Shown in pieces: positions 3,214-40,584 of a stretch of 40,874 nucleotides of DNA (within the stretch, counting starts at the first letter, position 1; each line of letters opens with the position of its first letter). Location of the stretch: positions 1 to 40,874 of IMG/VR virus record IMGVR_UViG_3300024187_000014. One strand, written 5' to 3'. Position numbers and translations under genes: made by a program. The notes beneath the pieces were generated by a model that saw only the letters and a program-made list of their open reading frames with translations, was not told the DNA's origin and did no database searches. The DNA is from a virus. Its lineage: Duplodnaviria; Caudoviricetes.

Positions 3214-3224
3214 CTGAGGTAACT

Positions 3225-8357: not shown

Positions 8358-8385
8358 TTGACAACGTGCCGATACGGGGTATACT
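8358..8385 (+). promoter_or_regulatory. Sigma70-like promoter with a 13-bp motif over its start region
   Basis: TTGACA (8358-8363), 16-bp spacer, TATACT (8380-8385); motif at 8385-8397. Confidence 0.7.
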
Positions 8386-8421
8386 TACCTCAGTTAACGA
8401 ATTGAAATCGAGGTTGAAATC

Positions 8422-9137: not shown

Positions 9138-9170
9138 CTTCGATTACCTCAGTTAAGTGTAAATCCGTTC

Positions 9171-10508: not shown

Positions 10509-10553
10509 TGATTACCTCAGTTAACTACCTAACGAAATACACCACTAACACGA

Positions 10554-11033: not shown

Positions 11034-11048
11034 ATGCAATTACCTGAG

Positions 11049-11183
11049 TTAAGCGGCACAATCGACAATCGCGTATTCAAAGGGTACGGAACCGGGTTGC
11101 GTGGGTATCACGCAATGCTGCCCCGTCGGGCAATTGTCCTCTGTGACGATCCACTGAAACCCGTTCCATTGAACCACGCACAT
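11049..11183 (-). CDS. 44-aa Cys-rich peptide (absent from the ORF track)
   Basis: MCVVQWNGFQWIVTEDNCPTGQHCVIPTQPGSVPFEYAIVDCAA; TGATG coupling, GGAG RBS, and stop codon inside the motif. Confidence 0.65.
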   Translation of the reverse strand: MCVVQWNGFQWIVTEDNCPTGQHCVIPTQPGSVPFEYAIVDCAA

Positions 11184-14731: not shown

Positions 14732-16032
14732 GTTTCCGCGTACTGGAACAGCCAAGAGAAATCGAACGACGAAAACAGCTGCGGGTTCGATGCAATCGCA
14801 GGGTTATTAGGGTTCATGGGCGCCTCGTTACCCGGAGGGCGCGTAGCATTCAAGTAATATTGCTGGCCCTTCGGCGCAAAGATGTTATGCCCGAAATGTG
14901 TTGCGCCAGTGTTACCCGGTACAGGATCGAAGTAGATAAACTTCATCACTACATCGTAGAGCCATGGGAAAAACATCGCCCGCGAGTTACCGCTGAAAAG
15001 ATATTGCCCATATTTGGCGCCGTACGGCTTCGATTTTAGCTCCGGCATTTCGCGGAGGAGTAGCGTCTCTTTTCGGCAATGGAGAAATTCTTGAGAGTTA
15101 ACTTTCCCTAACGCTCGGAGAAACATACGGGGTAAACCGTGAGCGTCTAAAATGAAGTCCGCGGGTACGTCGCGCCATTCGACGTACAAAACCCCCTTCG
15201 TCTCGTTCAGCTTGTGAGGTACGGGGAATGCCTGCCCTAAATACGTCACGTTTTGCGGGTTCGGGTTCGGGTTTTCGACAAACTGGAGCTGCCCACCCTC
15301 AAGCGTTAAAACGTCAAGGTACGGGTTAAATCGAATGATAGCGTTACGTGACCACTCCGCCCATACGTCGGCGTTCGCGCCGGCCGCTACTTGTCCATCC
15401 GGGAAATCCGGCAGTACATCAGGTGGGTAATATCCGCGAATGTGCGCGGGTACTGCAAGCGTCGATTGTGTTATCTCACTATCTTTCAGTACCGGGTATT
15501 CTACAGGTTCAAAGTCTACGGCGATTTCATAATACGGTTGCCGAAAGTAATTCGGGGATTCCGGGCGATAAGTCGAGTTAGTCGGCGCGGGCTTCAGCTT
15601 GCTATTGTAGCTCCCGCCGGATAGTGAAACCTCCCCACCCCCACCCCCACGAATCGAGGCAGTACGCGCGTAGTAGGCGTAACAGTCCTCATACTTGCTA
15701 TTGTCGGTACTGTATACCTGCCCGCGGTACGGGAACATGATCGGCTTATTACGTCGGAGTCGGTACGTATTCACTCCGGTTTTCGATATATCAACTCCAA
15801 CTACAGGTAGGATAAGCTGCAACGCCTGATGTAAGTTATCGAGCGTGATTTTATTGTTCGTCCCAGCATCCTCTGTGTACCCCATTTCCAGTTTCGTCGG
15901 GTCACAGCTCCCGTTAGTATCCGTACGCGCCTGAAACGACATGGTAGCAAAAGCGCGATCAACCCCCGCCGTCCACGTAAATTGCGGGTCGAACATTTCC
16001 ATTAACTGATTAACTGAGGTAATCGACCCCAT
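14725..16032 (-). CDS. Putative minor tail / distal tail protein
   Basis: Directly downstream of the tape-measure candidate; TAATG coupling. Confidence 0.55.
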   Translation of the reverse strand: MGSITSVNQLMEMFDPQFTWTAGVDRAFATMSFQARTDTNGSCDPTKLEMGYTEDAGTNNKITLDNLHQALQLILPVVGVDISKTGVNTYRLRRNKPIMFPYRGQVYSTDNSKYEDCYAYYARTASIRGGGGGEVSLSGGSYNSKLKPAPTNSTYRPESPNYFRQPYYEIAVDFEPVEYPVLKDSEITQSTLAVPAHIRGYYPPDVLPDFPDGQVAAGANADVWAEWSRNAIIRFNPYLDVLTLEGGQLQFVENPNPNPQNVTYLGQAFPVPHKLNETKGVLYVEWRDVPADFILDAHGLPRMFLRALGKVNSQEFLHCRKETLLLREMPELKSKPYGAKYGQYLFSGNSRAMFFPWLYDVVMKFIYFDPVPGNTGATHFGHNIFAPKGQQYYLNATRPPGNEAPMNPNNPAIASNPQLFSSFDFSWLFQYAETW

Positions 16033-17063: not shown

Positions 17064-17737
17064 TACTTCACTAGCTCATGTTGACGGAGGAGGTTATCAA
17101 TCTTCGCCGACTCTTCCGCGCTGTACGGCTGGCGCTTCTCTTTCGCTTCCGCGTCCGGGTCCGTACGGCGCCTCGATTCATCGACTAACGCAATCTTTTG
17201 TTTATCCGTTAGCCAAGACACTTCCTCAATGCTCATACCTAACCCACCTTGATCCTCCGGGAGCGCGAATCGACCGTACACCCGCTCAAGCAATATCGAT
17301 TTATCCTTAGGCGTTACCTGAGTTAATTCGACTGACGATTCAACGTCAATGAGAGTCACGATAGCCGTTAGCTCCCGGCGCTTCTCGCGGCCCATAGCCT
17401 CGATATCGGAGGTTCGTAGCTCCGGGTGATTCTCCACTAGCAGCATTAGGACAAACCGATTGCGCCCCTCCGGAGTGCCCATAGCTTCTACGTACCTATC
17501 CGCGCCAAATCGAAATACACCGTTTTTAACATTGCGGATAAACCGCTCTTTCATTTCCAAGCGCTCGGCGCTTGTGATATATTCGTTAGTCTCGATTTCC
17601 TCAATTTCGCTTTGCTTGAGCCACGTTTCAAACCATGAGCGTTGCCTATCCGACATAAAGGAAAAGAGGTAATCTTTTCCCCGCCAGTTAAGCGTATACT
17701 TGAATCCGAAATTGCCTAGCGCTTGTGAGTAGTCCAT
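17063..17737 (-). CDS. Putative tail assembly chaperone
   Basis: Synteny between tail tube and tape measure; charged helical sequence; GMSIEEVSWLT motif. Confidence 0.55.
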   Translation of the reverse strand: MDYSQALGNFGFKYTLNWRGKDYLFSFMSDRQRSWFETWLKQSEIEEIETNEYITSAERLEMKERFIRNVKNGVFRFGADRYVEAMGTPEGRNRFVLMLLVENHPELRTSDIEAMGREKRRELTAIVTLIDVESSVELTQVTPKDKSILLERVYGRFALPEDQGGLGMSIEEVSWLTDKQKIALVDESRRRTDPDAEAKEKRQPYSAEESAKIDNLLRQHELVK

Positions 17738-18161: not shown

Positions 18162-18176
18162 TAGTAGTTACCTCAG

Positions 18177-18650
18177 TTAATATCCTTGCGGCGAATTTAC
18201 AATTGTGTGATACCACATTTCGTAGACCCACTCATACTCCACATTCTCGCCGCGTTTTACCTTATTACGGAACAAGCGCCGGTCATTCTCTAGCCAGCGA
18301 CTACCACCCGATACTTCCCCGCTCCGCAGCGTATATACCCGGCCCTCGAATTGCCCCGTAGGTGATGCCAGTAAGCCAATGATTGAATCGAGGGAATCGA
18401 GGGAGTTTGCATAGATCGTAAAGAGGAAAATGTACTCCCTCTTTAACGTCCGTACCCCTGATGCCGAATATCCCCGCGTATCGTGAATCGAGCCGTCAGG
18501 TAAGGAATACACAATCCGCGGCTTGGCGGTTCCCGGTGTATCGATTTCAAATTCAAACCCGCCCGTAGTCGCGGCAACTAACGCATTATCCGATGCAAAA
18601 GCGTCATCCTTAATTGCCCGGATAATCGAGTAGATGGGTTGACCTGGCAT
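18177..18650 (-). CDS. Putative tail terminator / completion protein
   Basis: Synteny; KPRIVY...FTIYA pattern. Confidence 0.55.
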   Translation of the reverse strand: MPGQPIYSIIRAIKDDAFASDNALVAATTGGFEFEIDTPGTAKPRIVYSLPDGSIHDTRGYSASGVRTLKREYIFLFTIYANSLDSLDSIIGLLASPTGQFEGRVYTLRSGEVSGGSRWLENDRRLFRNKVKRGENVEYEWVYEMWYHTIVNSPQGY

Positions 18651-19028: not shown

Positions 19029-19735
19029 TATACGACACTTAAGCCAAGTCCTTTATACGTTCGGAGAATCGACTGCGCCTGTAGCTCCCGGTTCAGAATC
19101 TCCGACAGCGCATAATTGTAAAACTTGGTCCCCTCTGAGGTAGGTGCCCACCCCGCATTTTTTGCAGTAAGCTCAAGCGCCCGCGTTAGCACCATCGTCG
19201 CCATTACAAGATCGGCGGGAAAAGCGTTATCGGGGAACCCGCAGACATATGTTAGCTTGATCGTACCTTGTGCGGGTTCAAGGGTCCGTGTTAGTCGATC
19301 CCCTCGAATTACGCTCCTACCGCCACCTTGCCCGTTGAGCAAGTAAATGATTCCACCGCGGGCATAATTAACTGAGTTAACTACGTCGAAAGAATCCCAC
19401 TTGATCGTATAATCATCCCCTGATACTTGCAATGATTCCGCGGGAAAGGCGTTAGTAGCTTGCCCGAAAAGCGCGTTAGCATCGTAATACAGCGACGATA
19501 CAGTATATAAAGGTCGTTGTCGCGTTACAATGTAGTCGACGCCTTTCGGGCTTGCGTACTCCGTCAAAGGGTTCGCCGGTCGTACAAACCTTTGTTGACA
19601 GTAACTTTGAATAAACGCCGTAACACTTTGGATATACGTTGCATACACCGTATCCAGACTGGTTCCCGACACCCGTATAAAACTCTTATACGATGTTACA
19701 TCGGTAAACATATCTGGCGAACGGGATACGCTCAA
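19028..19735 (-). CDS. Head-tail connector/adaptor (gp6-like)
   Basis: FIQSYCQQRF, IKLTYVCGF, PADL and QSILRTYK motifs. Confidence 0.75.
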   Translation of the reverse strand: MSVSRSPDMFTDVTSYKSFIRVSGTSLDTVYATYIQSVTAFIQSYCQQRFVRPANPLTEYASPKGVDYIVTRQRPLYTVSSLYYDANALFGQATNAFPAESLQVSGDDYTIKWDSFDVVNSVNYARGGIIYLLNGQGGGRSVIRGDRLTRTLEPAQGTIKLTYVCGFPDNAFPADLVMATMVLTRALELTAKNAGWAPTSEGTKFYNYALSEILNRELQAQSILRTYKGLGLSVV

Positions 19736-20234: not shown

Positions 20235-20273
20235 GTTAGTAGTTACCTCAGTTAAGCGTTTCCGTTACCTCAG

Positions 20274-21512
20274 TTAACGCGCGGCCACAGTTACGATATT
20301 CGACACAGTGTTAGAGCTGCCGTATTTCAACGTCAGCTTCGAGTTCCACCAGCTCTTACCGTCGATACGGATTTCAAACCGGAAGGCGTGCAACCCTTGA
20401 TCGAAGTAAACGTGCATCGAGGAGAAGCTACGAATGTCGCCCTTCGTTGCGTAAAGCAACGTAGTAGGATCGACAAACGCGATATCCCCGGCCGTGCCAA
20501 GGTCCGGCTGGAACTCAGTTTCGATAACCGGGCGCCCGAGAAGAGTCGGGTACGGGGCGCCGTCTACCGTATGCTGCGGGAGGAAAATCGGAATCGTTCC
20601 AACCGTCATTTTGAACAGTTGCGGCCATGCGTTGTTGCAGACGAACCAAACGCCATTCTTGCGGCAACCGTGCCACATACCAGACCACATCTTAAAGACG
20701 TTATCCGTGAGGATCGTACTTGCGGCTTGTCCCGTTTCCGCGGCAATCGATTTGAGGGAGGGGGAGTTAAGGAAACCTTGCGGCTTGCCTACTCCGTCGC
20801 CGTTAACCACGGAATCGCCGATACGGAATCGAAACTCCTGCGCGACGATATCCGAAAGGAAGGTTTCCAGTACCGGAAAATCTTCCAGCATTTCCGTTGT
20901 AACCTTCGTAAAGACGTACAACGTCTCCAATTTCAGGTTAACATTCTTTTCTTTCGGCTTGCTCGCGGTAAGCGCGCTCGGCGGACCCTCTTGGCGCCAG
21001 TACGACGTAACACCACCGAAGCGGCTCCCGTCAGCGCGGGAGGTTTCATCAATCGCAGGAATCGAGAGCGTGTTACTAGTCAGCTGGTTAAACAGCCGGA
21101 CCCGCGAAAGCATTTCATCTTCATAAACGCGCAGTAGGATTTCATTCGCAAACTGCGGGGGCACCATTACCCCGCCATCGCTCATAATCGATTCATTCAT
21201 TGCCGCGGGGAACGCCTTACCCTCATACTGCTTGAGGGTTTTTTCGCGGTAATCGACATACGCCTTATCGTATGTCTTGAGCGCTTCCGACATTGACTTA
21301 CCAGTGTACAGCGCGTGAACATCCCGGAGGAAGTGCCCGCTACTACGATACGGCGCCACCTTGGCGGCGCGCTCGCGCTTGAGTTGCTTCCGGTGATAGT
21401 CAAGCACGCTACTTGCGGTAGCGTCCGGACGGCGCGGGGACTTCATTTCTTCCAAACCGCGCCGGTTACGCTTCTGCGCAAGTCGAATCTTTTCCAAAGC
21501 GGACGAAGCCAT
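20274..21512 (-). CDS. Major capsid protein, HK97 fold
   Basis: DGGVMVPPQF, NGDGVGKPQGF, TLLGRPVIETE, GDIAFVD and FRFEIRIDG motifs. Confidence 0.95.
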   Translation of the reverse strand: MASSALEKIRLAQKRNRRGLEEMKSPRRPDATASSVLDYHRKQLKRERAAKVAPYRSSGHFLRDVHALYTGKSMSEALKTYDKAYVDYREKTLKQYEGKAFPAAMNESIMSDGGVMVPPQFANEILLRVYEDEMLSRVRLFNQLTSNTLSIPAIDETSRADGSRFGGVTSYWRQEGPPSALTASKPKEKNVNLKLETLYVFTKVTTEMLEDFPVLETFLSDIVAQEFRFRIGDSVVNGDGVGKPQGFLNSPSLKSIAAETGQAASTILTDNVFKMWSGMWHGCRKNGVWFVCNNAWPQLFKMTVGTIPIFLPQHTVDGAPYPTLLGRPVIETEFQPDLGTAGDIAFVDPTTLLYATKGDIRSFSSMHVYFDQGLHAFRFEIRIDGKSWWNSKLTLKYGSSNTVSNIVTVAAR

Positions 21513-21532
21513 AGGGACTTACCTCAGTTAAG

Positions 21533-22570: not shown

Positions 22571-22582
22571 GAATTAACTCAG

Positions 22583-22792
22583 TTAACTATATTCGCGACC
22601 GTCGCCAAACCATTGCGCAAGTCGATTTAAGATATGCCAGCGGAATTCAAAATCGATGAGTCCAACGTCAATTTGCCCGCGGGAGATTTTCCACCCCTGC
22701 GGGAGTCGAGTTACCTTAGCGCCGTTAGGTACGCGGAGCGTAGTTCCGTCGTTAAACAGAATCTCTTTCCGCGTTACGCCTATCAGGAGCAT
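22583..22792 (-). CDS. Small hypothetical protein
   Basis: ATG downstream of an internal promoter; stop codon lies in the motif at 22574. Confidence 0.55.
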   Translation of the reverse strand: MLLIGVTRKEILFNDGTTLRVPNGAKVTRLPQGWKISRGQIDVGLIDFEFRWHILNRLAQWFGDGREYS

Positions 22793-22866: not shown

Positions 22867-24231
22867 TTAGCTTGACAAATGTTTTCCGTTACTCCCCGCT
22901 CCCGCCCGCGTACCTACGTCCGCGGGGTTTGAACTCCCGGAACTCGACTCCGTTTGTGCCCCTTGCTGTTTCGCGGCGTTAGCTTGCTCTTGCATTTTTT
23001 GCTCGCGTGCCGCGGGGATTTCGTCCCCGCCCGGTTTTTCGGGATATCCCATAACGGCCCGAATCTCGTTATCCGTGAAGGCACCGATTTCCTTCATCGT
23101 CTTAGCGGTATCTTTCTTTTGGTCTGGATCGTCTACCCGGTGAGCGCGGTACATGAACTCTTCCGGTACATCATCGAAATAGTCCGCGAATACTTGCTTA
23201 TCCGACATTGCGAGGCGCCATAGAATCGGCTGTATCCTTAACTCAGTTAACTGTAACATCGCGGCGTAAAATTCCGCGTGGGAACTCGCTTCCATGATGC
23301 CCGCAGCAACCGGCGGAACCTTGTACCCGCCATAGATAGCATCACGGATTTGCGACCAGCCGTTAACGTGGTCTAAGTCATTCGAGGTAAGCGCCCACGG
23401 TTCCATAACTAAGCCGCGCGGAACATACAAGTGTTCGCCCGCATTCTCTGACCCGCTCTGCACGCTTCGTAGCTCTTTCTTGAATCTGTCACGATCCTCC
23501 GGCGATAGCTCCGCGTCTGCTGTTTCCGTAATCTTGCTTCCGGGGCGCATTCCCTTCGCCATGAGGTTATACCGGGAATTATCAATCTGGTCCGCTAGAT
23601 CGATCCACCCTGCCATAGCGCTAGTAGGACTCCAGCCGTCGCCTAGGTGCATAGGCGCAGGGAGCCTAACTACTTGACACTCCTCATACGGGATCATTTC
23701 CGCGAGAATCGAAAACAGCTTAACGGGGTATTCTGACCACGTTACCCCCTGCATCGCGGTAAGCGTCACGCGGAAACCGTCGCGCGTAGGCGCCAACATG
23801 CCAGTAGGGATCGAATACCGCTCCGCGATACCGCTTGATTTGTTCTCTACTACCCACGTTACGCTGATACCCGTTAGCATGAGATTCAAAACGCGCATTT
23901 CGTTAAACAGCGCTAACGATTGGTCCGGGTTCGGGCTGTGAACCGCTTCGTACATCGCATGATCTTTAGTAATCAGCTCCGCCGGCTCTACCGTAGCCTG
24001 AACAATTTGATCTAAGATAGTCGAGATAGCGCAGTATACGTGCCCCTTATACTGCTTCGATTCCTGAAAGTGGTCCGAACTCCAATAGCCGACAAACTTA
24101 CCCGCAAGCGCCTGTTGCAACAGTACGATATTAGACGAACTGTCCGCAACTTTGTTCGCAAGCTCTTTAACTTGCTCCCGAAGTTCTGCGCGTCCCGTAA
24201 CTCTATCGATCCATTGCCCTAATTTACTCAT
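22867..24231 (-). CDS. Portal protein (HK97-like)
   Basis: VYCAISTI, GWSP, GSENAG, YKVPP, IQPIL and FTDNEIRAVMGYPEKPGGD motifs; ATG 4 nt after the motif at 24236. Confidence 0.9.
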   Translation of the reverse strand: MSKLGQWIDRVTGRAELREQVKELANKVADSSSNIVLLQQALAGKFVGYWSSDHFQESKQYKGHVYCAISTILDQIVQATVEPAELITKDHAMYEAVHSPNPDQSLALFNEMRVLNLMLTGISVTWVVENKSSGIAERYSIPTGMLAPTRDGFRVTLTAMQGVTWSEYPVKLFSILAEMIPYEECQVVRLPAPMHLGDGWSPTSAMAGWIDLADQIDNSRYNLMAKGMRPGSKITETADAELSPEDRDRFKKELRSVQSGSENAGEHLYVPRGLVMEPWALTSNDLDHVNGWSQIRDAIYGGYKVPPVAAGIMEASSHAEFYAAMLQLTELRIQPILWRLAMSDKQVFADYFDDVPEEFMYRAHRVDDPDQKKDTAKTMKEIGAFTDNEIRAVMGYPEKPGGDEIPAAREQKMQEQANAAKQQGAQTESSSGSSNPADVGTRAGAGSNGKHLSS

Positions 24232-24244
24232 GACGTTACCTGAG

Positions 24245-24502
24245 TTAACCCAAACGCTCTGCACCTTCTAAAGCCTCGTGAAATCTATCGTACCACTCTG
24301 CTACAGGGAAAGTCTTAGCATACAAAAAGGCTATTAGCTCTCCTGTACCAAACCCTCCCCTGCATTCTCCGGCAATCAGCGCTTGTTGCTCTCCAAATAA
24401 CTTTTTGTAAACTTCGTACGCGGCTAACGTAACCTTAGTAGAGATTCGCCCGCCTCTACGGTCCCCTGTTTGCACCGGGTGGGTATCGATTGTATCCGGC
24501 AT
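24245..24502 (-). CDS. Hypothetical protein
   Basis: Bounded by 13-bp motifs at both ends (RBS and stop codon); RGGFGTGEL. Confidence 0.65.
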   Translation of the reverse strand: MPDTIDTHPVQTGDRRGGRISTKVTLAAYEVYKKLFGEQQALIAGECRGGFGTGELIAFLYAKTFPVAEWYDRFHEALEGAERLG

Positions 24503-24509
24503 AGTTACC

Positions 24510-24857
24510 TCAGTTAACTCGTTTCCACCCCGCCGAACCCTCAAGCTTCTCTGTAAGCTCTAATCTTGCATTCCGCGCCGCCTGCATTTTGCGGAGTAAC
24601 TCCTCCGCAGTTTCCTCTGACCAGTCCTCATGTACTTCTACACTCACGGCGCCCGTCTCATACGTCGCCTGATACCAACGTCCATTAAGTCGCATCACTA
24701 GGAACGTCGCAACGTCCTTATCGGGGGTCTTGACACGCTTAACGTGATTAGTCCCGTACTCTTTTTCCAAGCGCTTGTACGCAAGCTCTACCGCACCCTC
24801 TTTCGACATAGCTTTAGTTAATTCATCAGTAGCGATATCGTGGAAAAAGAGTTTCAT
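24510..24857 (-). CDS. Hypothetical protein
   Basis: TAATG coupling to TerL. Confidence 0.65.
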   Translation of the reverse strand: MKLFFHDIATDELTKAMSKEGAVELAYKRLEKEYGTNHVKRVKTPDKDVATFLVMRLNGRWYQATYETGAVSVEVHEDWSEETAEELLRKMQAARNARLELTEKLEGSAGWKRVN

Positions 24858-26287
24858 TAAATTAACTCGAAAGAGCCTCCGGTAGTTACCGCGAGACGCT
24901 CCAGCGCAACACAAGCAATCGCGTAGGCGTCCGCAACGTCGTCCAACAGACCCTCCGGGGCGCGTAGCGTACTGCGCTCAATGCTCATCAGCTGATAAAG
25001 CGCGGTAGAGGATCGAATTTTCGTTTTCTCATCCTTCAAATGTTCCGCCATACTGGCGTACATTTCAGCTTTACCCCGTGAGTCGGACAAGTGCCCGACA
25101 TTCTTATCGCGCCTTGAATGTAGGAGCCGTGCCTTACGGTTTTTCAAATCGAGGATAACCGCGTGCCCGTGGTTGTTGCGCTCAACCATGAGTCCGGCGT
25201 TATTGTAATAGCGGCTAAGCGCATGGAGGAAGTCTGCAAACACGGCAATTTCAATTTTGGCGTGTACCTCCGCAACCTGATTGCCTTCAGTATCGAGGAC
25301 AACAGCCGCGCTATCATCGCTCGTTTCCTTTCCTTCGGCAACGTCAACACCGATAACATATCGAGTGCCCGCTTTCGGCAGCTCCCATACCTTCAATCCC
25401 GGCAACTCAGGCGGGATATCGATTAACTGAGTTAACTCCTCGTACGCTTTTTGGCACCACGCGGGCGATAGGCGCTTGTTAAGTTCATGCGGGGCTAAGG
25501 CCTCGATATCGGTATTCGGGTACTGCTCATGTACGAAGTCAAGGGAGCCAGTGTTAGTTAGAGAGTCCTTTACTTGATCCTCATACCACTGTTGCGTCCT
25601 ACCGGGATGAGCACGCCAATCACAGAATATCGGAAAATACTTATTTTCCCCATCACGCGCTCCGCGGTAAATCCGCTTAAACATCGACTCAGGTAAGTCC
25701 TTGTTAGCTCGCGATATCAAAAGCAATTGCCCGCCGTTATCTACCGTAGGCTTAACCCGCCGTAACAGCGTGCCAAGGTCCGCAACTAGGTCCGCTTCAT
25801 CGACCATGACAATCGAAGCTGTGTAGGAATCTCCCGCCGTAGTCGGTAAAGCGCGAACCCGACTACCGTTCCCAAAAACGAGCGTATGCGCGTTGCCCTT
25901 GCAACCAAGGCGCATCCACGGCGGGAGATTCCTTTCCATACCTACCAATCGCGTTAATAACTCTTGAGCCTCAGTATCGCGGAGAGAATACAGCAAACAA
26001 AGCGAGTTAGGGTAAAAAATACTCTGCTTGAGTATCTTCGCTTCGCCTAACCAGCTCCAGCCGATTTGCCGCGCCTTTAACGCGACTACTAACTGCTCTG
26101 TATCAAACGCTTCCGCTACCGGAACCTGCGCGGGCCATAGATCGAACGGAACCCAATCTGTTTCTTCTCCGCTTTCATCCTTAGACAAAATCTTGATGTA
26201 GTTACAACAGAGATACGCTAGGGATCGAAGACACCTAGCATTCTCCGCGATTCTCTGAGCCAGCGTTACCTCAGTTAACTGGTTCAA
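24857..26287 (-). CDS. Terminase large subunit
   Basis: LKARQIGWS (Walker A), VMVDEA (Walker B), IGVDVAEG...DDS, VERNNHG and DDVADA (RNase H nuclease); start uncertain. Confidence 0.93.
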   Translation of the reverse strand: MNQLTEVTLAQRIAENARCLRSLAYLCCNYIKILSKDESGEETDWVPFDLWPAQVPVAEAFDTEQLVVALKARQIGWSWLGEAKILKQSIFYPNSLCLLYSLRDTEAQELLTRLVGMERNLPPWMRLGCKGNAHTLVFGNGSRVRALPTTAGDSYTASIVMVDEADLVADLGTLLRRVKPTVDNGGQLLLISRANKDLPESMFKRIYRGARDGENKYFPIFCDWRAHPGRTQQWYEDQVKDSLTNTGSLDFVHEQYPNTDIEALAPHELNKRLSPAWCQKAYEELTQLIDIPPELPGLKVWELPKAGTRYVIGVDVAEGKETSDDSAAVVLDTEGNQVAEVHAKIEIAVFADFLHALSRYYNNAGLMVERNNHGHAVILDLKNRKARLLHSRRDKNVGHLSDSRGKAEMYASMAEHLKDEKTKIRSSTALYQLMSIERSTLRAPEGLLDDVADAYAIACVALERLAVTTGGSFELI

Positions 26288-28573
26288 TCAGATTCCCCAC
26301 TTCGTTCGCAACGCCGCAATCTTCGCATCAAGAAACGTCGCGTCCTTCACGTCCGAGTAGATGAGCAGCTCCAGCAGGTGCCCGTTGTGCGGGTTTCCGC
26401 CGTTGTACTTCAAGTCCCCGATGGTGCCGCATTTAGCTGTCCCTGTCACGCTCCCGCTCAGCGTCAACGTCGAGCCGTTCAACCGCAACTCGCTTGATGC
26501 CCCGTTGTTCGTGCTGGCCGTAACGAATGCCCCGGTTAACGTGTTGGCCGCGCCGCCATTTCGCTCCGTGCCACCGTACTTGACATAGAACACATTGTCC
26601 GAAAACCAGACCGGGGCTTCAAACGCAACAACGGAAGAACTTTCGCTCCCGAACGGCGAGGTGAAGATGCCCGTCGCGGCCCGCTTGAAAACGGCAATGT
26701 AAGTGAGGCCCGAAACGTCTGCGGGCAGGTGCATTCTGTCGTCGCTGCCATCGAAGAGAATTCCCGGCAGCGAGTTTTGCACGCCCGTCTTGAACAACGG
26801 CCGCGAGCCTGATACGGACATGCTCACGTGGGCACCGTTGCCGCTCTTGTCCTGCCACCAGTAAGCGGCCTGATTGTTTGTCGCCTGCGTCGTGTTGGCC
26901 GCGTCGGTCGTCACCACGTCGTCGGCCGCGTAGTGACCCAGGATGCCGACTTCCTCCACAACCGGGATCGTGAACGGCGCGAGGTCTGCCGCCTGTCCGT
27001 TGGCGTCCGTCGCGCGGATCACGATGGTCGACGGTGTGTTGACAACCTGCGTCGGCGTGCCCGCGACAGCACCGCTGCTGGCGTTCAGCGTGATCCCGGT
27101 GGGCAGCGTCCCTTGAAAGACGCTGTAGGTGTATGGAGCCGTGCCGCCGCTGGCGCTCACCGTGAACCCGGTGTAGGCCGTGTTGACCACCGTCGCTGTC
27201 GTAACCGGCGTGGCGCTGATCGTGGGCAAGTCGGCGAGTACGGGCGAGAACGATGCTCGCGTGACATAGCCGCTGTCGCCCCAGGCGTACATATTCAACG
27301 TGCCGATTTCCGTGGCCGCAACGTTGCTGAACTCGCACCAGATCGCGCGAAGACTCGCCACGGCGTTCTGCACGGCTTCCATCTGGCCAAGCGGGTAGGT
27401 CGCCCCACTCGCCTGCCAGAGCGTGCGCGTCGTGACGCTCGTCCCGTCACTGGCCCGGTCTGCGTAGTAAATATCGCCGCCATCGACTTCACTCAGTGCG
27501 TTCGTCTCGGTCCAGGTACAACGCACCACACCGCCCGCGAGCGGGATAATCCCAAGGCTGGGGTTTTTCGTGCTGGTGCCGAGATTCACAACGGAGCCGA
27601 GGACGCCGCTAATGTAAGACTGGTACTTGATCGTGTACGAAGAGCCGTCCACAGAGTCGCACCAGATGAAATGCCGGTTGCTGCCACCGGAGTCATAACA
27701 CCAGTCCGGCCCCCAATTGACCGTGAAGTTCCCGCTGTTGTCGATCAGCAGGAAGTTGCTAACGTTACCGCTAGTGATGCCTGTCGACGCCGCCACGCTG
27801 AAGCTGTTGTCAATGTTGTGGATCGTGTCGTCGGCGGTTTCGTAGTACCAGTAGTACACGCCGCGGCGGTAGGTGTCGCCGGTGTCCGCCTTCGTCGTGA
27901 CGAAGTGGATCTTTGTCCCGACGAGCTGGCACCGCATGTTGTACCAGCGGAACCCCACGCCAAACGAGCAGATGCCCGCGACAGCGCCCCAAGTTATCCG
28001 GCCTCCAGGATTGAAGGTTCCGATGATCAGTTCGCAGGCGTTAATGGCGCTGGCGTCGCGGTAAAAAACATAGACTTGGTTGCCGACCACGACGGGGTGC
28101 GGGTACGATCCGCCTATACCACCGAACGTGGCTTGCCGCGACCAGTGACTTTCGTCGTTGGGAGCAGTGGATACCGAGTGCTGAATTACGTCGTTGTGCG
28201 AGCCGCCGATCACATGGTCATAGCCGTTTGTGTCGGTGAAGCGCGCCGGGTTGCCGTGGTCGTCGTTTTGCAACCACCCCGAACCAGCTTGGTAAATACC
28301 CTCCCATTGATTAGTCGCGTGGTTGAACGAAGTAACGCATGGAAACCGCGCCCCGCCGCTGGACGCCTCAAAGGCCATCTGAGTCTTGTTGCGCGTCGAA
28401 TTGGCGACGGCATGGGGAAATACGAAGTTGTTATACCACGGGTAGGTGCAGCCGTTCTGGGCGAAGGGCGCGGCGGTGACGGAGAAGGGGTTTCGACTAG
28501 ACGCCGATACCCGACCGCTTGCAGAAACGCGCCCGCTTTTAGCAACTCGATTAACTGAGGTAACGCGACCCAT
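26288..28573 (-). CDS. Putative receptor-binding protein: BNR-repeat propeller + putative Ig (He_PIG) + LamG/ConA-like domain
   Basis: DDHGNP, SYPHPV, ASGGTAPYTYSV..GTLPTGITLNASSGAVAGTP, WQDKSGNG.H and FDGSDD motifs. Confidence 0.75.
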   Translation of the reverse strand: MGRVTSVNRVAKSGRVSASGRVSASSRNPFSVTAAPFAQNGCTYPWYNNFVFPHAVANSTRNKTQMAFEASSGGARFPCVTSFNHATNQWEGIYQAGSGWLQNDDHGNPARFTDTNGYDHVIGGSHNDVIQHSVSTAPNDESHWSRQATFGGIGGSYPHPVVVGNQVYVFYRDASAINACELIIGTFNPGGRITWGAVAGICSFGVGFRWYNMRCQLVGTKIHFVTTKADTGDTYRRGVYYWYYETADDTIHNIDNSFSVAASTGITSGNVSNFLLIDNSGNFTVNWGPDWCYDSGGSNRHFIWCDSVDGSSYTIKYQSYISGVLGSVVNLGTSTKNPSLGIIPLAGGVVRCTWTETNALSEVDGGDIYYADRASDGTSVTTRTLWQASGATYPLGQMEAVQNAVASLRAIWCEFSNVAATEIGTLNMYAWGDSGYVTRASFSPVLADLPTISATPVTTATVVNTAYTGFTVSASGGTAPYTYSVFQGTLPTGITLNASSGAVAGTPTQVVNTPSTIVIRATDANGQAADLAPFTIPVVEEVGILGHYAADDVVTTDAANTTQATNNQAAYWWQDKSGNGAHVSMSVSGSRPLFKTGVQNSLPGILFDGSDDRMHLPADVSGLTYIAVFKRAATGIFTSPFGSESSSVVAFEAPVWFSDNVFYVKYGGTERNGGAANTLTGAFVTASTNNGASSELRLNGSTLTLSGSVTGTAKCGTIGDLKYNGGNPHNGHLLELLIYSDVKDATFLDAKIAALRTKWGI

Positions 28574-28965: not shown

Positions 28966-28983
28966 CCTAGTTACCTCAGTTAA

Positions 28984-29907: not shown

Positions 29908-29955
29908 TAGTAGTTACCTCAGTTAACGGTATACACCCGTACAGTAACTACTAGA

Positions 29956-30882: not shown

Positions 30883-30930
30883 TTGTCGTTACCTCAATTA
30901 ACTATTGTTCAAGTCCCCGAAATCTCAATT

Positions 30931-31556: not shown

Positions 31557-31616
31557 GGAAGTCGCGTTACCTGAGTTAACAGTCCGGGAGAAATGGCAAT
31601 TTCAAAGTGTACTATC

Positions 31617-32134: not shown

Positions 32135-32529
32135 TGCGCCCTCCAGGGTTAATTACCTCAGTTAACATAATACCATACGTGTCAATAGATATTTTCAAAA
32201 ATTATTTTTCTCGCCTCTTGACAAAGGTTTATTTTTTGTTCTAATGAATGAAACCCCGGAGAAAATATGCAAACTTCTATTGACACGATTCCTCAACAAA
32301 CGTATCATGTAGTTATAACGTATCCGCTAGGGTAGTATATCTTTATAGAGAGAGAGAGAGATTAGAGTATATACCATAGGGTCGAACTCGTTGTAATGAC
32401 ATGAAACAGTACCTAGTTATTCAGTACAAAAGGTTAGTTTGACAAAGATGGGTAGGATAGTTCGATTACCGGGGGAGCGATAATCCTTACTAAGTTGATA
32501 AGGATAGTAAACATTAACTGAGGTATATC
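32135..32529. promoter_or_regulatory. Divergent AT-rich control region between the late and early arms
   Basis: Non-coding; TTGACA-17-TATCAT at 32280-32308; further TTGACA at 32218 and 32439, and TGTCAA at 32180; (AG)n tract near 32347-32361; motifs at 32153 and 32514. Confidence 0.75.
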
Positions 32530-33131: not shown

Positions 33132-33265
33132 TAAAGTGCAAACGATGTAATACAAAGTTTTACCGCGTATTATCGGGTAGAATCCCGTTATACTGTTCGG
33201 CTGAGTGCCGTATGCAAGCCGTGCACCTTCGGAGAAAAATAAAAAATTCAAGAGGTGCCACTTGA
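33128..33265 (+). CDS. Small zinc-finger protein (45 aa)
   Basis: CKRC...YCSAECR; GGAG RBS; ATGA coupling. Confidence 0.6.
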   Translation: MIKCKRCNTKFYRVLSGRIPLYCSAECRMQAVHLRRKIKNSRGAT

Positions 33266-33474
33266 CATTGCTAGGAAACTTGATCCGCCAAATACGTTGC
33301 CGTTACGGGTTAACTCAGGTAGCTTTCGCGGTAAAACTAGGTATAACGCTGGCGCATCTAGGTAATATCGAGAATAACAAAGTTATACCTAGTGTAAGAT
33401 TATTGCAACGAATTGAGGAAGTTTATGACGTGAACTTCCAAATAATTCTCAGAAAAAATAAAACTTTGACTTGA
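33262..33474 (+). CDS. Xre-family HTH transcriptional regulator
   Basis: IRQIR...GLTQ..FA.KLGIT..HL.NIENN...PS; GAGG RBS before TTG at 33262. Confidence 0.85.
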   Translation: MTLLGNLIRQIRCRYGLTQVAFAVKLGITLAHLGNIENNKVIPSVRLLQRIEEVYDVNFQIILRKNKTLT

Positions 33475-33509
33475 CAAGCATGGTACAATATTAACTGAGG
33501 TAAATTGAA

Positions 33510-35066
33510 ATGAATCTCTACGACTATCAAGAGCAAGCTGTACTCCACGCGCTCAACTCGCGCGAGCAGTACACACTGATCGCATCCCCGACCGGAACGG
33601 GGAAAAGTTACATGATTCTTGAGGAGCAAAAGCGGAGGGAATCCGCGTGGGTCATTACGCCGCGAATCGAGATTATCCGGGATATGCTCAAGAAACTCGG
33701 ATACAATGCAGACCTGTACACAGAGCAACAAATTATCGATGCCAGTTGGCGTATGTGTATCACTACGCCAATGCGCCTACGCAACCTCATGCTGAAGGGC
33801 GAATTCCGCGAACCGCTGAAACACCTAATTTGGGACGAAGTACACCACCATTCCGCGGACTCTTACCAGCTCTTAGACCTAATGGCAGGGGTACGTAGTA
33901 CCGGGTACACTGCAACCCCGTTCCGCGGTACTCCGAAACAAACTGCGGAATTCCGGGACAAGTGGGGCGAACCGTATTGGGCTATCACGCTGCACAATGC
34001 GGTATCGCAAGGTGTACTAGCGATACCTGAGGTAACGATTAAACCCCTCATTGACGACGATATCGTTAAGGTAGTCAATGGCGAGTTTCAAATCGAATCC
34101 CTAGACGACGCTATCCGAACGCGCCTTGATGATGTAGTGGAGTTGCTAGAGGGGTACTACGATATAGGGCATCCTGAGTGTACAGAGCAAATCGGAGAGG
34201 TAGTGTTACGGGGGCAGGGTATCGACAAACCTACAATGATTTCCGTACCCAGCTCAAAATGCGCCTACGAGCTGGCGGAAGCTATGGGTAAGGTGTCACT
34301 ACCCGCGCGAGTAGTGAATCAAGCAACCAGTTTCGCGGATCGAAAAGCCGCTTTCGCATCCTGTATCAAGGGCCAGAGTTTTCTGATTCAGATTGACGTA
34401 GTGTCAGAGGGTGTAGACTTACCGCAACTCCGCCGTTTAGTCGATTTGCGCCCTACGCTTTCCCCCGTAAAGTGGCTTCAGCAAGTCGGGCGCATTACGC
34501 GACCCGGCCCGATTACTCCTGAGTACGTTTGCACGAATCGTAATTTGCTCCGCCATTGCTACTTGCTTGAAGGCATGATACCGATAGGCAAGGTACTTGA
34601 GGCACAGGAAGCATTCCCCAAGACGGCGCGTACGCTCGCCATGCGTACATTAGGACTTGAGGCGCTAGGTCGATTCAAGCCTACGACCGTCAAGCTATCC
34701 AACGGCCTAGATTGTGTTTTTTATTCTCTGTCGTCTCTTGACAACGGGAGGAAGATTGATTATACTCTAATACTACATCCTATGATTTCGACCCCCCTAG
34801 TGGCGAAGCGGGAAATGAGTCGAGAACAGTGGGACGCGATCATACAGGGTACTCTGAAGCGCGGCGCGAACTGGCGTGAACAGTCTACCCCGTTAACTGA
34901 GGTAACGGGATTTCAATCTGTAACGGCGAAAAGTATCTCGGAGAAACAACGGGCATGGTGGGAGCGTTCCGCGGAGAGATTCGGGCTTGATTCGTCGCAG
35001 AAAATCGACGCGAAACAGTTCCAGATTCTCCCGGTACTCTCGGACCTTGGAAAGAGGATACTGTGA
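33510..35066 (+). CDS. Superfamily 2 (DEAH/ResIII-like) helicase
   Basis: LYDYQ, SPTGTGKS, DEVHH, TATP, EGVDLP and QQVGRITR motifs. Confidence 0.93.
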   Translation: MNLYDYQEQAVLHALNSREQYTLIASPTGTGKSYMILEEQKRRESAWVITPRIEIIRDMLKKLGYNADLYTEQQIIDASWRMCITTPMRLRNLMLKGEFREPLKHLIWDEVHHHSADSYQLLDLMAGVRSTGYTATPFRGTPKQTAEFRDKWGEPYWAITLHNAVSQGVLAIPEVTIKPLIDDDIVKVVNGEFQIESLDDAIRTRLDDVVELLEGYYDIGHPECTEQIGEVVLRGQGIDKPTMISVPSSKCAYELAEAMGKVSLPARVVNQATSFADRKAAFASCIKGQSFLIQIDVVSEGVDLPQLRRLVDLRPTLSPVKWLQQVGRITRPGPITPEYVCTNRNLLRHCYLLEGMIPIGKVLEAQEAFPKTARTLAMRTLGLEALGRFKPTTVKLSNGLDCVFYSLSSLDNGRKIDYTLILHPMISTPLVAKREMSREQWDAIIQGTLKRGANWREQSTPLTEVTGFQSVTAKSISEKQRAWWERSAERFGLDSSQKIDAKQFQILPVLSDLGKRIL

Positions 35067-35261: not shown

Positions 35262-35570
35262 ATGCAAAACGGAATCGATATGACCGCGATGACAAATGCC
35301 GCTACGCTTGTCGGCATAGAAACATTAGGCCGCGCGATCACAGAGCGATTCAAGTCGGACCCGTCTGCGCCCGGTATTAATCTATCGTACCTGCCTAACG
35401 GGCAATGGTACGGATCGATCCTCCGATACACCGAACGACTAGGGCAAGGAAAAGTTGTCCTACTCAAGTGCAAGCGTGCCACTCTTGAGGAAGTTATCAC
35501 GGAGCTTGAATACGCTTGGCGCGATTACGTAACCCTTAACCCCTTAACTGAGGTAACTAACAATGGCTAA
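35262..35570 (+). CDS. Hypothetical protein
   Basis: GGAG-TTGAA-ATG leader. Confidence 0.65.
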   Translation: MQNGIDMTAMTNAATLVGIETLGRAITERFKSDPSAPGINLSYLPNGQWYGSILRYTERLGQGKVVLLKCKRATLEEVITELEYAWRDYVTLNPLTEVTNNG

Positions 35571-36246: not shown

Positions 36247-36632
36247 TTTTTGATATTCACAAAGCACTTGAACTGCGAAGTAAGTTAGATCAAGCTAAGC
36301 AGAAGTTTGCGTCAACAAGATGTAGCGACGCTAAAGGTACGATAGCGTTAACTGAGGTAATCGAGGAGCTAGTTACACTCTTACTCGCTCCGCAAACTGT
36401 ATTCGTGCAGGAGCAAGTGAGAAATGAATTCGGGCCGGAGATAACGAAGCTTGATAATGAGATAGAACGTCCGCCGGTTAAGTTATGGTATGATTTACCG
36501 CAAGAATTACGAATGGCACTGTTAGCATTCGCCGAACGCTGGGCGCTTATACGGATTAAGGGTGAAAAAGATACGGAGCCTCCGCACGACATAGCAAAGC
36601 TATTAGGGCAGTGCGGAGTACGGCATGAATAA
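36243..36632 (+). CDS. Hypothetical protein
   Basis: ATGA coupling; in operon. Confidence 0.65.
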   Translation: MIFDIHKALELRSKLDQAKQKFASTRCSDAKGTIALTEVIEELVTLLLAPQTVFVQEQVRNEFGPEITKLDNEIERPPVKLWYDLPQELRMALLAFAERWALIRIKGEKDTEPPHDIAKLLGQCGVRHE

Positions 36633-37425
36633 ACCCGATTTGTCAAAATTCGGAACCGCGGCAGCGCCACTACGGGCTAGCTCGATTCCGATGCTTTTGG
36701 CGTGCCCCTGGCGCGCTGTGATGGTATTCATGCGAGAATATCCCGACTTTGCAGGAATCGCGGCGGATACCGGGTCCGCGGTGCATAAAGCGATTGAAGT
36801 CTATCACCGGGATAGGAAATCGTTCGATGAGTGCCTAGCTGAAGCGCTGAATGAGGTTAACTCAGGTAAGTATCCACGGAGGGACGCGGACGATACGCGC
36901 TTGCACTTTCGAGGATACTACGATGACCCCCGAAACCGAACAGCTAAAATCATCAAAAGCGAGGAGCCGGTCGAATTTACGGTTAAAGAGGAAGAAACGG
37001 AAGTAACATTCCAAGGAACTTTTGACCAAATTCGACTTGACAGCGGGCAGAATATCCTGTATGATATCAAGACAGGGAAAAGCCTTGAAGCGTGGAACCT
37101 ACTTCAAGAGCGTACCTTGCAGCTTGCGTGCTACTGGATCGGTGCGCGGGAGAAAGGAATCGACGTTGACAAGGTAGGTATCATCTATACCTATGGATAT
37201 CGGAAGCGTGGGTACGACGGGGTAAGTGGCGTTTTCCTCTTGCACCCGATGAGGTACGCCGATTGCCATACACTTATAAAGGGGGTGATTCGACAAGTGA
37301 AGGCGATTCGCGCGGGGCAGATTAACGTATACCCCGGCGCTCAATGTAGTTTTTGTCCGGCAAGTAGTGTGTCTACCTGCCTACCACTCTTGAAAGAACG
37401 TGTTGAACTAGGAATAAGGAAATAA
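36625..37425 (+). CDS. PD-(D/E)XK nuclease, RecB/Cas4-like
   Basis: CP...GSAVH, GTFD, YDIKTG, QLACY, C-terminal CSFCP....C. Confidence 0.85.
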   Translation: MNKPDLSKFGTAAAPLRASSIPMLLACPWRAVMVFMREYPDFAGIAADTGSAVHKAIEVYHRDRKSFDECLAEALNEVNSGKYPRRDADDTRLHFRGYYDDPRNRTAKIIKSEEPVEFTVKEEETEVTFQGTFDQIRLDSGQNILYDIKTGKSLEAWNLLQERTLQLACYWIGAREKGIDVDKVGIIYTYGYRKRGYDGVSGVFLLHPMRYADCHTLIKGVIRQVKAIRAGQINVYPGAQCSFCPASSVSTCLPLLKERVELGIRK

Positions 37426-38252: not shown

Positions 38253-38296
38253 CTACCTCAGTTAACCTTAACCTTAACCTTTACCTTGGACTTGAA

Positions 38297-38695: not shown

Positions 38696-38724
38696 TTGAC
38701 AAGCGAATCGAGCCGGGGTATATT
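38696..38724 (+). promoter_or_regulatory. Sigma70-like promoter of the ParB operon
   Basis: TTGACA (38696-38701), 17-bp spacer, TATATT (38719-38724). Confidence 0.7.
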
Positions 38725-38755
38725 ACCTCTGTACGGTTAACTGAGGTAACGAGAA

Positions 38756-39199: not shown

Positions 39200-40198
39200 A
39201 TGGCTAAGAGCAAAAAGGAAAACAACGTGGCCACGGCGACGACTGAGCAACGCGAGCAAATCATGCTGAACCCCTCCGAGATTCAGCGTACCGCGAATCT
39301 CGGCCGGTTCCGCGAGTCCCCGACAGAGGGGCGCGTCAAGAAGCTGGCAGAGTCGATTCAGGAACACGGGCAGCTCGCACCCGTCGGCGTCCGCAAGACT
39401 GACGGGGGTTATGAGCTGGTGTATGGGTGGACGCGTGTCGCGGCCTGCGAACTGCTGAACCGCGAAGTTCGCGCCGAAGTCCTCGATATCGCGGAGAATA
39501 ACAAGCTCGAAAAGTCCATCGCCGAGAATCTCCGCCGCAACGAAATGTCACCGATGGACAAGGTAGCCGCAATGCACCGGCTCCACAACTTCGGCAAGAG
39601 CAAGCGCGAAATCGCTCAGATGTTTAACTGTGCCGCGCCATGGGTTACGGAAGCGATGAAGATTAACGACCTGCCCGACACGATCAAGGAAGCCGTGGAC
39701 GAAGGGCGCTGCGGTATGCGGGCCGCGGTCGCGCTGACGAAGCTTAAGGACGACGATGAGCGCATGGCGGTTTTCGTCGGCGCCCTGTCCACCGAACCTG
39801 ACCCGGAGGATAACAAGCGTACCCTCGAAATCTATGACGCGAACAAAATCCACAAGGAAGTTGAGAAGCGCACCGGAGTCGCGACCGCTCCGAAAGCTGC
39901 CGACGGAGAACCGTCCGCCGAAACGTCGGACGGTTCTCCGTCCGCGGAATCTGAGGCGGGGACGGAAACCACAGAAGGCGCGGGCAAGCTGGGACTGACG
40001 AAACCGCGGGCGGAGGAACTACGGGACGTGATTCTGCGGGCTATCGGATCGACTCCCGGCCCGAACATTACCCCCGCGTTCCGCGAATTCCTGAAAGCGG
40101 AAATCGACATGTTGGAAGGTCGAATCAACGCGGAGGAATTCGAGCAAGCTTTCGCCAAGTTCGGCGGGTTCCAAACCGGCGACTTGCATAAGGACTAG
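39200..40198 (+). CDS. ParB/Spo0J/KorB-family DNA-binding protein
   Basis: LAESIQEHGQLAPVGV, YELVYGWTR (box II variant), ENLRR, HTH (SKREIAQMFNCAAPWV), and LP..IKEAVDEG. Confidence 0.88.
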   Translation: MAKSKKENNVATATTEQREQIMLNPSEIQRTANLGRFRESPTEGRVKKLAESIQEHGQLAPVGVRKTDGGYELVYGWTRVAACELLNREVRAEVLDIAENNKLEKSIAENLRRNEMSPMDKVAAMHRLHNFGKSKREIAQMFNCAAPWVTEAMKINDLPDTIKEAVDEGRCGMRAAVALTKLKDDDERMAVFVGALSTEPDPEDNKRTLEIYDANKIHKEVEKRTGVATAPKAADGEPSAETSDGSPSAESEAGTETTEGAGKLGLTKPRAEELRDVILRAIGSTPGPNITPAFREFLKAEIDMLEGRINAEEFEQAFAKFGGFQTGDLHKD

Positions 40199-40258: not shown

Positions 40259-40294
40259 AAACTTAACTGAGGTAGCCTAACCCTAGGTGAAATC

Positions 40295-40537: not shown

Positions 40538-40584
40538 GGATTACCTCAGTTAACTGCCCCCACCCCTATCTTGGAGTTGAAATC

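Follow-up and report, generated by a model that had tools for sequence, protein, structure and literature searches.

The window considered here – the whole of one virus record, IMGVR_UViG_3300024187_000014, of 40,874 bases – contains a gene for a ParB/KorB-like protein of 332 residues, referred to below simply as ParB, together with 49 scattered copies of a 13-bp near-palindrome (Table 1). The ends of the record overlap by 139–140 nt with one homopolymer difference, from which we take it to be a circularly permuted phage genome of ~40.73 kb. ParB clamps are known from segregation (the ParABS systems), from nucleoid occlusion (Noc) and from plasmid gene silencing (KorB), and a dense, even lattice of sites on a phage without a ParA would be a further use of them. 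A first-pass annotation of the sequence had singled out ParB as the prime candidate reader of the 13-bp sites; on the evidence set out here, we think it probable that ParB does read them, and also – if marginally less firmly – that the 49 near-palindromes are its loading sites, from which clamps would cover the genome.

The motif, TTA[AC]CT[CG]AG[GT]TAA, is present in 41 exact copies and in eight with one mismatch, against an expectation of 0 and 0.3, respectively, from 20 order-3 Markov simulations; copies with two mismatches, by contrast, stand at background (3 vs 3.25). The mean gap between sites is 831 bp – the one site per ~0.8 kb reported in the first-pass annotation – and the gaps are markedly even, with a coefficient of variation (CV) of 0.54 compared with 0.97 for random placement, and with 0 of 5000 random sets as even. 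Of these sites, 26 lie at gene junctions and 23 deep inside genes. If the junction sites are held fixed and the deep ones randomised, the CV becomes 0.885, and 0.54 was reached in 0 of 10,000 trials; deep sites also keep further from their nearest neighbours than chance would have it (599 vs 413 bp, p=0.004). This gap-filling by deep intragenic sites argues for selection for coverage, which is thus supported as a force acting on the spacing. Whether selection acted mainly for coverage is a more tentative matter; we are drawn to this proposition without being persuaded of it.

ParB itself has all the parts announced for it: the N-terminal domain, the ENLxR motif, the helix–turn–helix (HTH) domain and a C-terminal domain. 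Pfam places ParB_N at residues 38–111 (E 1.4e-7) and HTH_ParB at residues 115–192 (E 5e-7), both above cut-off, with an ENLRR motif at residues 109–113, and TIGR00180 also exceeds its cut-off (90.8 vs 58.45 bits), whereas the RepB and PRTRC models – like that for Noc – score far below theirs. Among solved structures, the nearest in sequence is that of Thermus Spo0J (E 1.9e-17), and the top Foldseek matches are ParB, Spo0J, Noc and KorB (E 7e-11 to 1.5e-7). The AlphaFold model, built on an alignment of 25 rows and with a mean predicted local distance difference test score (pLDDT) of 79.5, consists of a nucleotide-binding domain (NBD) and the HTH domain, a disordered linker (residues 230–268, pLDDT<50) and a helical domain (residues 271–329). 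The last of these is predicted to dimerise: its homodimer model scores 0.56, compared with 0.02 for the best of three controls, with contact agreement and pLDDT each at least 71 (the former in %), and the mark used was attained by 20 of 30 solved pairs but only one of 23 single chains. As Pfam ParB_C is not matched, this domain is of another type.

The first-pass annotation had pointed to Box II, which reads GWTR instead of the usual GxRR. The spelling is correct, yet the emphasis was misplaced, because GWTR still satisfies GxxR and so leaves the CTP (cytidine triphosphate)-binding arginine, R79, intact; the idea that GWTR abolishes CTP binding can therefore be ruled out. Alignments to the Myxococcus xanthus, Bacillus subtilis and Thermus ParB proteins match R36, G76, R79, E109 and N110 with M. 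xanthus R54, G92, R95, E126 and N127, described as phosphate-binding (10.1101/2021.05.05.442810). A profile of the C-terminal domain was made from 15 matches and added 10 of 170 other proteins screened. Across the resulting 25 sequences G76, R79 and N110 are invariant and R36, E109 and R113 nearly so, the equivalents of KorB R117 and N146 are invariant, and an aromatic residue directly follows the Box II Gly in 21 of the 24 readable proteins, so that, judged from these alignments, a GWTR-type Box II is a subfamily trait. [quoted passage not shown]

The two catalytic residues are another matter, as M. xanthus Q52 and E93 are replaced by L34 and W77. In M. xanthus, ParB without Q52 or E93 is reported to be released more slowly and to spread over 125–175 kb instead of 33 kb (10.1101/2021.05.05.442810). 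KorB, however, in which Ala takes the place of this Glu, nonetheless hydrolyses 60–90 CTP per dimer per hour (PMC11790492), so slow hydrolysis in the phage protein is a bare possibility and the description ‘hydrolysis-dead’ has to be rejected. Nor is CTP use itself guaranteed, since some orphan ParB folds bind ATP or GTP (PMC12704722).

ParB as the reader can be judged against related ParBs of other phage records. A quick tree with 69 rows places the ParB of the window in a branch of 23 rows (SH-aLRT, an approximate likelihood-ratio test, 96), in which the phage records G001 and G007 are the only others with DNA, and which excludes every viral ParB from a record without a lattice. Their ParBs are also the sole strong matches to the C-terminal profile among viral records (48 and 28 bits, respectively). 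Both records carry lattices of their own: 25 copies of the 15-bp ACCGAAA[AT]TTTCGGT in G001 (62 kb, complete; CV 0.53, p<0.0002) and 24 copies of the 15-bp TCCA[AG]AA[AT]TT[CT]TGGA in G007 (56 kb; CV 0.66, p=0.023). By BLASTP (E<=1e-3), ParB is the only protein common to the window and G007, and ParB and a C1 peptidase are the only ones common to the window and G001; phmmer on shared proteins added just two weak matches (E 0.008–0.02). Furthermore, G007 has no HTH_3 match, that of G001 is below cut-off, and in G007 ParB is the only HTH match above cut-off among the 55 open reading frames (ORFs) scanned with Pfam. Lattices in both same-branch records, a shared ParB and the lack of HTH_3 in G007 thus support the designation of ParB as prime reader.

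G001 and G007 are also informative when set against each other, their ParBs being 44% identical. Eight of the 25 G001 sites lie within 60 bp of a G007 partner (1.8 expected, p=0.0006) and 13 within 150 bp (p=0.002), yet the spellings are nearly exclusive: G007 contains a single copy of the G001 motif, and G001 none of the G007 motif. If the sites had co-evolved with one reader encoded by the phage, positions would be expected to persist while the spelling changed, as they do here. Besides its palindrome, G001 has 17 copies of another motif, CCTTCCCCAG(A/G/C), which is not palindromic; some of them are in inverted pairs or beside the palindrome (L179–L182).

The comparison with G007 bears on autoregulation too. 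The promoter of the parB operon (38696–38724), the exact site that follows it at 38737 and the one-mismatch site beyond the gene at 40263 are all where the first-pass annotation had put them. However, with one site per 0.83 kb a copy is expected near any gene, so that one near parB is uninformative, and the parB gene of G007 has no site within 1 kb. The flanking sites therefore do not support autoregulation; the original interpretation is borne out in its parts on ParB as prime reader, which the comparison backs, and on coverage, which the gap-filling backs.

In all, 24 records, G001 and G007 among them, were examined whole or nearly whole, namely 23 with a related ParA-less ParB and one terminase relative without; G006, G011, G016, G017 and G024, of which the flanks alone were examined, are left out of the counts. 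A palindrome lattice is present in five of the 23, and in 0 of 21 unrelated viral loci that served as controls. In a second viral ParB clade (G015, G021 and G025), characterised by an acidic C-terminus (L278, L289), the records have their own imperfect palindrome, AGTT[GT]TTGAAAA[GC]T, in 17, 11 and 11 copies (evenness p=0.005, 0.03 and 0.13), one of them where parB begins. Among cultured phages, MN1 (LC754405), which grows on Thermus thermophilus HB8, has 17 evenly spaced palindromes of 17 bp, ACTCACCC[AT]GGGTGAGT, at positions from 3 to 73206 (L375, L379; CV 0.39, 0/5000); it encodes an unannotated orphan ParB with a GYRR box (L375:22939–24159), and one site lies just 5' of the operon. In Corndog, the 44.8 kb examined contain 29 sites, unevenly spaced (CV 1.06).

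Other repeats in the survey were rejected as lattices: that of G005 is a ~60-bp element, that of G014 is TTGACA-like and that of G023 resembles a Shine–Dalgarno sequence. The G005 element (L196–L203; 153 kb, 64% GC) occurs in eleven copies, intergenic in appearance and composed of a hairpin followed by an AT-rich core, one of them just 5' of the parB-like gene. Five records (G009, G011, G020, G024 and G026) encode two ParB-like proteins each, a few kb apart, and have no lattice where examined. The Yong-DA record (ON073792, L376), deposited as an Aphanizomenon phage, carries polysaccharide genes, a gene for a replication protein, parA and parB, but none annotated for the virion; it resembles a plasmid, and has four dispersed 16-bp palindromes.

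Several observations weigh against ParB as the reader. A lattice is absent from eighteen of the 23 viral records that encode a related ParA-less ParB, among them G004 and G027, which belong to the next-wider branch; of the cultured phages, neither Bowser nor phiAH14a in its first 50 kb has one. A uniform test on de-duplicated loci of 12–20 kb found a lattice in three of 28 with ParB and none of 36 without (p=0.08); of the three, L231 is a doubtful case, and the test missed the clade with the imperfect dyad. The link between ParB and lattice is accordingly clade-specific, and a general rule for ParA-less phage ParBs is not supported. Even within the branch, support amounts to two independent lineages including the window, because G001 and G007 are relatives, and a common reader might have gone undetected, since many ORFs in the three phages belong to no family. 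The HTH domain adds its own difficulty: the residues reported to read parS and the Noc-binding site (NBS) in ParB and Noc, G170, K171, S172, R173, N178 and R204 (PMC7383237), appear to correspond to N143, C144, A145, A146, E151 and V177, and the canonical parS residues R173, G201 and R204 to A146, R174 and V177 in the three ParB alignments. The recognition helix thus seems poor in base-reading residues, though this would be compatible with a different site. Finally, the sites of the window follow transcription, 37 forward and 6 reverse, an orientation bias that a symmetric clamp does not need. As no clear bias is seen in G001 and G007, that of the window probably stems from Shine–Dalgarno use and codon limits.

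The same orientation (15:3 for deep and 22:3 for junction sites) is shared by the stoperators of Cluster A phages, as described in the account of these (PMC4351075), and this invites the view that the Xre protein encoded at 33205–33474, or another small phage regulator, uses the sites as operators or stoperator-like elements, with ParB a bystander. The Xre protein clearly matches HTH_3 (E 1.8e-13), a site lies no more than 40 nt past the -10 element at four of the 11 sigma-70-like promoters, and the many ParB-bearing viral records without a lattice fit a bystander. Yet the proximity to promoters is about what placement at gene starts alone would predict (19 of ~60 starts have a site), the sites of G001 and G007 have no clear orientation, G007 combines a lattice with the absence of HTH_3 while in G004 a strong match to HTH_3 goes with the absence of a lattice, and no regulator is common to the window and either G001 or G007 at E<=1e-3; we therefore regard this view as unlikely, if still worth bearing in mind. 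A purely translational origin, in which the motif would be a stop codon, a Shine–Dalgarno sequence and a spacer (compare the start-associated sequences of Cluster K) and its palindromy incidental, draws on the base at the centre of the site. This is G at 20 of 26 junction sites but at nine of 23 deep sites (p=0.01), and at junctions it creates a GAGG core a few bases 5' of the next ATG. The 23 deep, gap-filling sites, many with a central C that destroys GAGG, are hard to accommodate in this way, as are the palindromes of G001, G007 and MN1, which have no Shine–Dalgarno core. We give hardly any credence to this origin; Shine–Dalgarno use looks rather like a second role acquired at junctions.

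Two further explanations concern who else might use the sites. Phages are known to carry sites for host factors, and the lattice could in principle recruit a nucleoid or division factor of the host, the phage hoarding the binding site of a host protein. The spellings of G001 and G007 nevertheless differ at conserved positions, and related spellings accompany related ParBs. In the candidate host phylum the motif is at background – 14 of 401 genomes have one to three copies, with a similar result for the reversed control – although this is a weak test, the host guess resting on one capsid match. No second lattice record appeared among the 42 viral and 122 metagenome loci listed as matches to a 15-mer pattern, the exceptions among these being the window's own contig and a 398-bp AT-rich piece with three close copies. 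Recruitment of a host protein is, in sum, decidedly improbable. An ordinary parS array read by ParB, serving partition of a plasmid-like prophage with a ParA or SMC protein of the host, would agree with the canonical layout of NBD and HTH and the TIGR00180 match; the Yong-DA element, with its parA and parB, likewise has dispersed palindromes, and without a matched integrase a temperate form would be extrachromosomal. On the other side stand the absence of the ParA-binding motif from all 25 subfamily proteins, the density of 49 sites in 40 kb compared with 12 KorB sites in ~60 kb, and the phage's own DNA polymerase, helicase and primase-like gene, typical of lytic replication, all of which make partition very improbable indeed.

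If ParB does read the sites, the biochemistry of ParB, KorB and Noc suggests how it would act: a dimer would bind the 13-bp site through its HTH domains, close on CTP, probably as KorB does, and slide off the site as a closed clamp, so that clamps would come to cover the whole 40.7-kb phage genome. KorB represses from a distance of 1.5 kb (PMC11790492); given that reach, no stretch of a genome with sites 0.8 kb apart would be out of range. The resulting protein coat on replicating phage DNA would organise or shield it, having been selected for coverage and not for control of a single promoter, and may also damp the host RNA polymerase, as KorB does. Such coverage of replicating phage DNA, favoured here over promoter-specific control or partition, is our best guess as to the purpose of the system.

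Among the systems described, this one would work most like KorB and its OB sites. [quoted passage not shown] The OB site, TTTAGC[GC]GCTAAA, present 12 times in ~60 kb (PMC13768133), is likewise a dispersed 13-bp palindrome with a central G/C, identical to the phage site at seven of 13 positions and different at six. However, KorB acts on the IncP plasmid RK2 with the ParA protein IncC and the clamp-lockers KorA and TrbA, whereas the window is a tailed phage with about six times the density of sites, no matched ParA and no recognised KorA, and its ParB stays below the cut-off of PF08535 (17.2 vs 22.3). Noc offers a second parallel, as a ParA-independent ParB paralogue with many scattered palindromes (PMC8429893, PMC4331003), and by alignment apparently shares the Arg at position 201 (R174; PMC7383237). 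It differs in its family model (TIGR04285, 72.7 vs a cut-off of 315), apparently in its specificity residues (Q-K-K-R in Noc, A-A-D-R here) and in its site, the NBS being 16 bp long and the phage site 13 bp with an odd centre. Noc has a membrane helix; the N-terminus of the phage ParB, as read from its sequence, is charged and polar, with no obvious helix of this kind. By membership criteria, the system falls outside ParABS, KorB (IncP) and Noc alike.

Phages provide comparisons as well. The Cluster O mycobacteriophages have 34 odd-centred palindromes of 17 bp, a third of them intragenic, and neither integrase nor parAB; the ParB-like gp90 is named as one of three candidate binders of this repeat, none of which that study identified as the binder (PMC4351075). 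gp90 aligns to the subfamily across NBD and HTH (hhalign 96.8%), but is a 502-residue protein with another C-terminus, lies outside the 23-row branch and, in Corndog, accompanies uneven sites. The stoperators of Cluster A and the start-associated sequences of Cluster K resemble the present sites in being many, short and either oriented by transcription or tied to gene starts, yet they are described as asymmetric, and the stoperators as part of temperate repressor systems (PMC4351075), while the sites of the window are near-palindromic and evenly spaced and their counterparts in G001 and G007 unoriented. Orphan ParBs are common on mobile elements and mostly uncharacterised (PMC12704722); ParB shares with those on phages the canonical layout, the missing ParA-binding motif and a divergent Box II, although the available part of that survey describes no cognate DNA sites. 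In the open-access literature we found no paper that establishes a lattice of palindromes for a phage ParB.

Several unrelated lytic phage lineages might have made a ParA-free ParB CTP clamp into a viral chromatin, loaded at private palindromes placed every 0.8–5 kb, even within genes, so that each clamp would coat its own genome only; lacking both canonical catalytic residues, it may stay closed longer. We hold this generalisation to be speculative and rather doubtful. Were it true, the lineage-specific spelling would separate self DNA from that of the host and of co-infecting phages, and MN1 would be a cultured case of viral chromatin. The use of ParB at a dense, even lattice on a phage without ParA would for its part offer an explanation of the Cluster O repeat left unexplained in 2015, a function for one class of orphan phage ParBs, and natural protein–site pairs with different spellings for specificity studies and DNA labelling. 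As MN1 has been cultured, grows on a host open to genetics and carries the same pairing, the idea is directly testable.

Table 1. Features of the window. For 13-bp sites (‘Site’), strand is given as ‘.’ and the basis throughout is motif search with classing as junction or intragenic.
Feature	Position	Strand	Basis
ParA-less ParB/KorB-like gene, 332 aa	39200..40198	+	Pfam, TIGR00180, solved relatives, AlphaFold model
Nucleotide-binding motifs: L34-G35-R36 (Q-P-R equivalent), Box I GQLAP, Box II GWTR, ENLRR	39299..39538	+	
Box II, G76-W77-T78-R79-V-A-A: GxxRxxA retained, Trp for catalytic Glu	39425..39445	+	
ParB-type HTH DNA-binding domain, aa 115-192	39542..39775	+	Pfam
Low-confidence linker, aa 230-268	39887..40003	+	AlphaFold model
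C-terminal domain, helical, aa 271-329, specific to the subfamily and predicted to form a homodimer	40010..40186	+	Models
Sigma-70-like promoter of parB operon, upstream	38696..38724	+	TTGACA-17-TATATT
Xre/HTH_3 protein, rival candidate reader	33205..33474	+	Pfam HTH_3
Site, exact, again at 40813 in end overlap	78..90	.	
Site, exact, intragenic	1780..1792	.	
Site, 1 mismatch, intragenic	3049..3061	.	
Site, exact, junction	3210..3222	.	
Site, exact, intragenic	4438..4450	.	
Site, exact, intragenic	5370..5382	.	
Site, exact, intragenic	6219..6231	.	
Site, exact, intragenic	6449..6461	.	
Site, exact, intragenic	6924..6936	.	
Site, exact, intragenic	8385..8397	.	
Site, exact, junction	9144..9156	.	
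Site, exact, junction	10512..10524	.	
Site, exact, junction	11040..11052	.	
Site, exact, intragenic	11971..11983	.	
Site, exact, intragenic	12596..12608	.	
Site, exact, intragenic	12967..12979	.	
Site, exact, intragenic	13743..13755	.	
Site, 1 mismatch, intragenic	14566..14578	.	
Site, exact, junction	16010..16022	.	
Site, exact, intragenic	17314..17326	.	
Site, exact, junction	18168..18180	.	
Site, exact, intragenic	19368..19380	.	
Site, exact, junction	20243..20255	.	
Site, exact, junction	20265..20277	.	
Site, exact, junction	21519..21531	.	
Site, exact, junction	22574..22586	.	
Site, exact, intragenic	23238..23250	.	
Site, exact, junction	24236..24248	.	
Site, exact, junction	24505..24517	.	
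Site, exact, intragenic	25423..25435	.	
Site, exact, junction	26266..26278	.	
Site, exact, junction	28551..28563	.	
Site, exact, junction	28971..28983	.	
Site, exact, junction	29914..29926	.	
Site, 1 mismatch, junction	30889..30901	.	
Site, exact, junction	31567..31579	.	
Site, exact, junction	32153..32165	.	
Site, 1 mismatch, junction	32514..32526	.	
Site, 1 mismatch, intragenic	33310..33322	.	
Site, exact, junction	33491..33503	.	
Site, 1 mismatch, intragenic	34023..34035	.	
Site, exact, intragenic	34893..34905	.	
Site, exact, junction	35544..35556	.	
Site, exact, intragenic	36348..36360	.	
Site, exact, intragenic	36857..36869	.	
Site, 1 mismatch, junction, immediately 3' of hairpin	38253..38265	.	
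Site, exact, 13 nt past parB operon -10; ribosome-binding position for 21-codon ORF	38737..38749	.	
Site, 1 mismatch, beyond parB and downstream hairpin	40263..40275	.	
Site, exact	40541..40553	.	

The rest of the genome is that of a tailed phage. PHROGs and Pfam name a terminase, a portal, a major capsid protein, a head–tail adaptor and a tail fibre, as well as DNA polymerase A, a helicase, an exonuclease and two methyltransferases besides the Xre protein and ParB, and a 711-residue ORF at 1078–3213 is similar to primase-helicases. The two adenine methyltransferase genes (3826–4323 and 6317–7084) lie on either side of that for DNA polymerase. With overlapping ends and genes for head, tail, packaging and replication all found, the CheckV completeness of 44% was rejected. 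The first-pass annotation had recognised neither ParA nor integrase, and profile searches of the record bear this out: the ParA families AAA_31 and CbiA and the tyrosine integrase family PF00589 gave no match, while 14 of 14 control genomes were matched. PHROGs likewise named neither among 57 ORFs, the motif KGGxGK[TS] is absent from the ORFs of the window, and KorA was not named by Pfam, PHROGs or NCBIfam among the ORFs scanned.

Close relatives of the locus are scarce. A single-protein locus search confirmed 0 of 44 pattern matches, and the best other ParB has ~30% identity (E 1.5e-24). Against cultured phages, tblastn gave only partial matches of 25–34% for ParB and nothing for the ParB of G001. 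Both ParB and a lattice are absent from the terminase relative (45% identity), a provirus with a completeness of 71%. Among the sequencing runs listed, one DNA run contains the sequence and may be its source; no RNA run is listed, which carries no weight either way. The sole basis for the host phylum is the label Gemmataceae on a single capsid homologue; in the 401 genomes of that phylum the subfamily profile found no match at E<=1e-38, in a search without a positive control, and a bacterial genome scan returned four matches, none of them ParB.

Several secondary-structure elements accompany the sites near parB. Two long, near-perfect hairpins, at 38209–38252 (after a gene for a 258-residue protein) and at 40207–40258 (after parB), have perfect arms of 16 and 20 bp, and in each case a 13-bp site begins no more than 5 nt further on; the site at 40541 is likewise preceded by a hairpin, at 40513–40537, of smaller size. 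There is no T-tract on the + strand. The gap just 5' of parB (39130–39172) contains a short direct and inverted repeat with two copies of CGCGAGTATTTAC, possibly a second operator or an RNA structure. Further away, and close to the point where transcription diverges, a 33-nt inverted repeat (85%; 32153–32185 and 33471–33503) prolongs a site, in each of its two copies, as far as a TTGACA hexamer.

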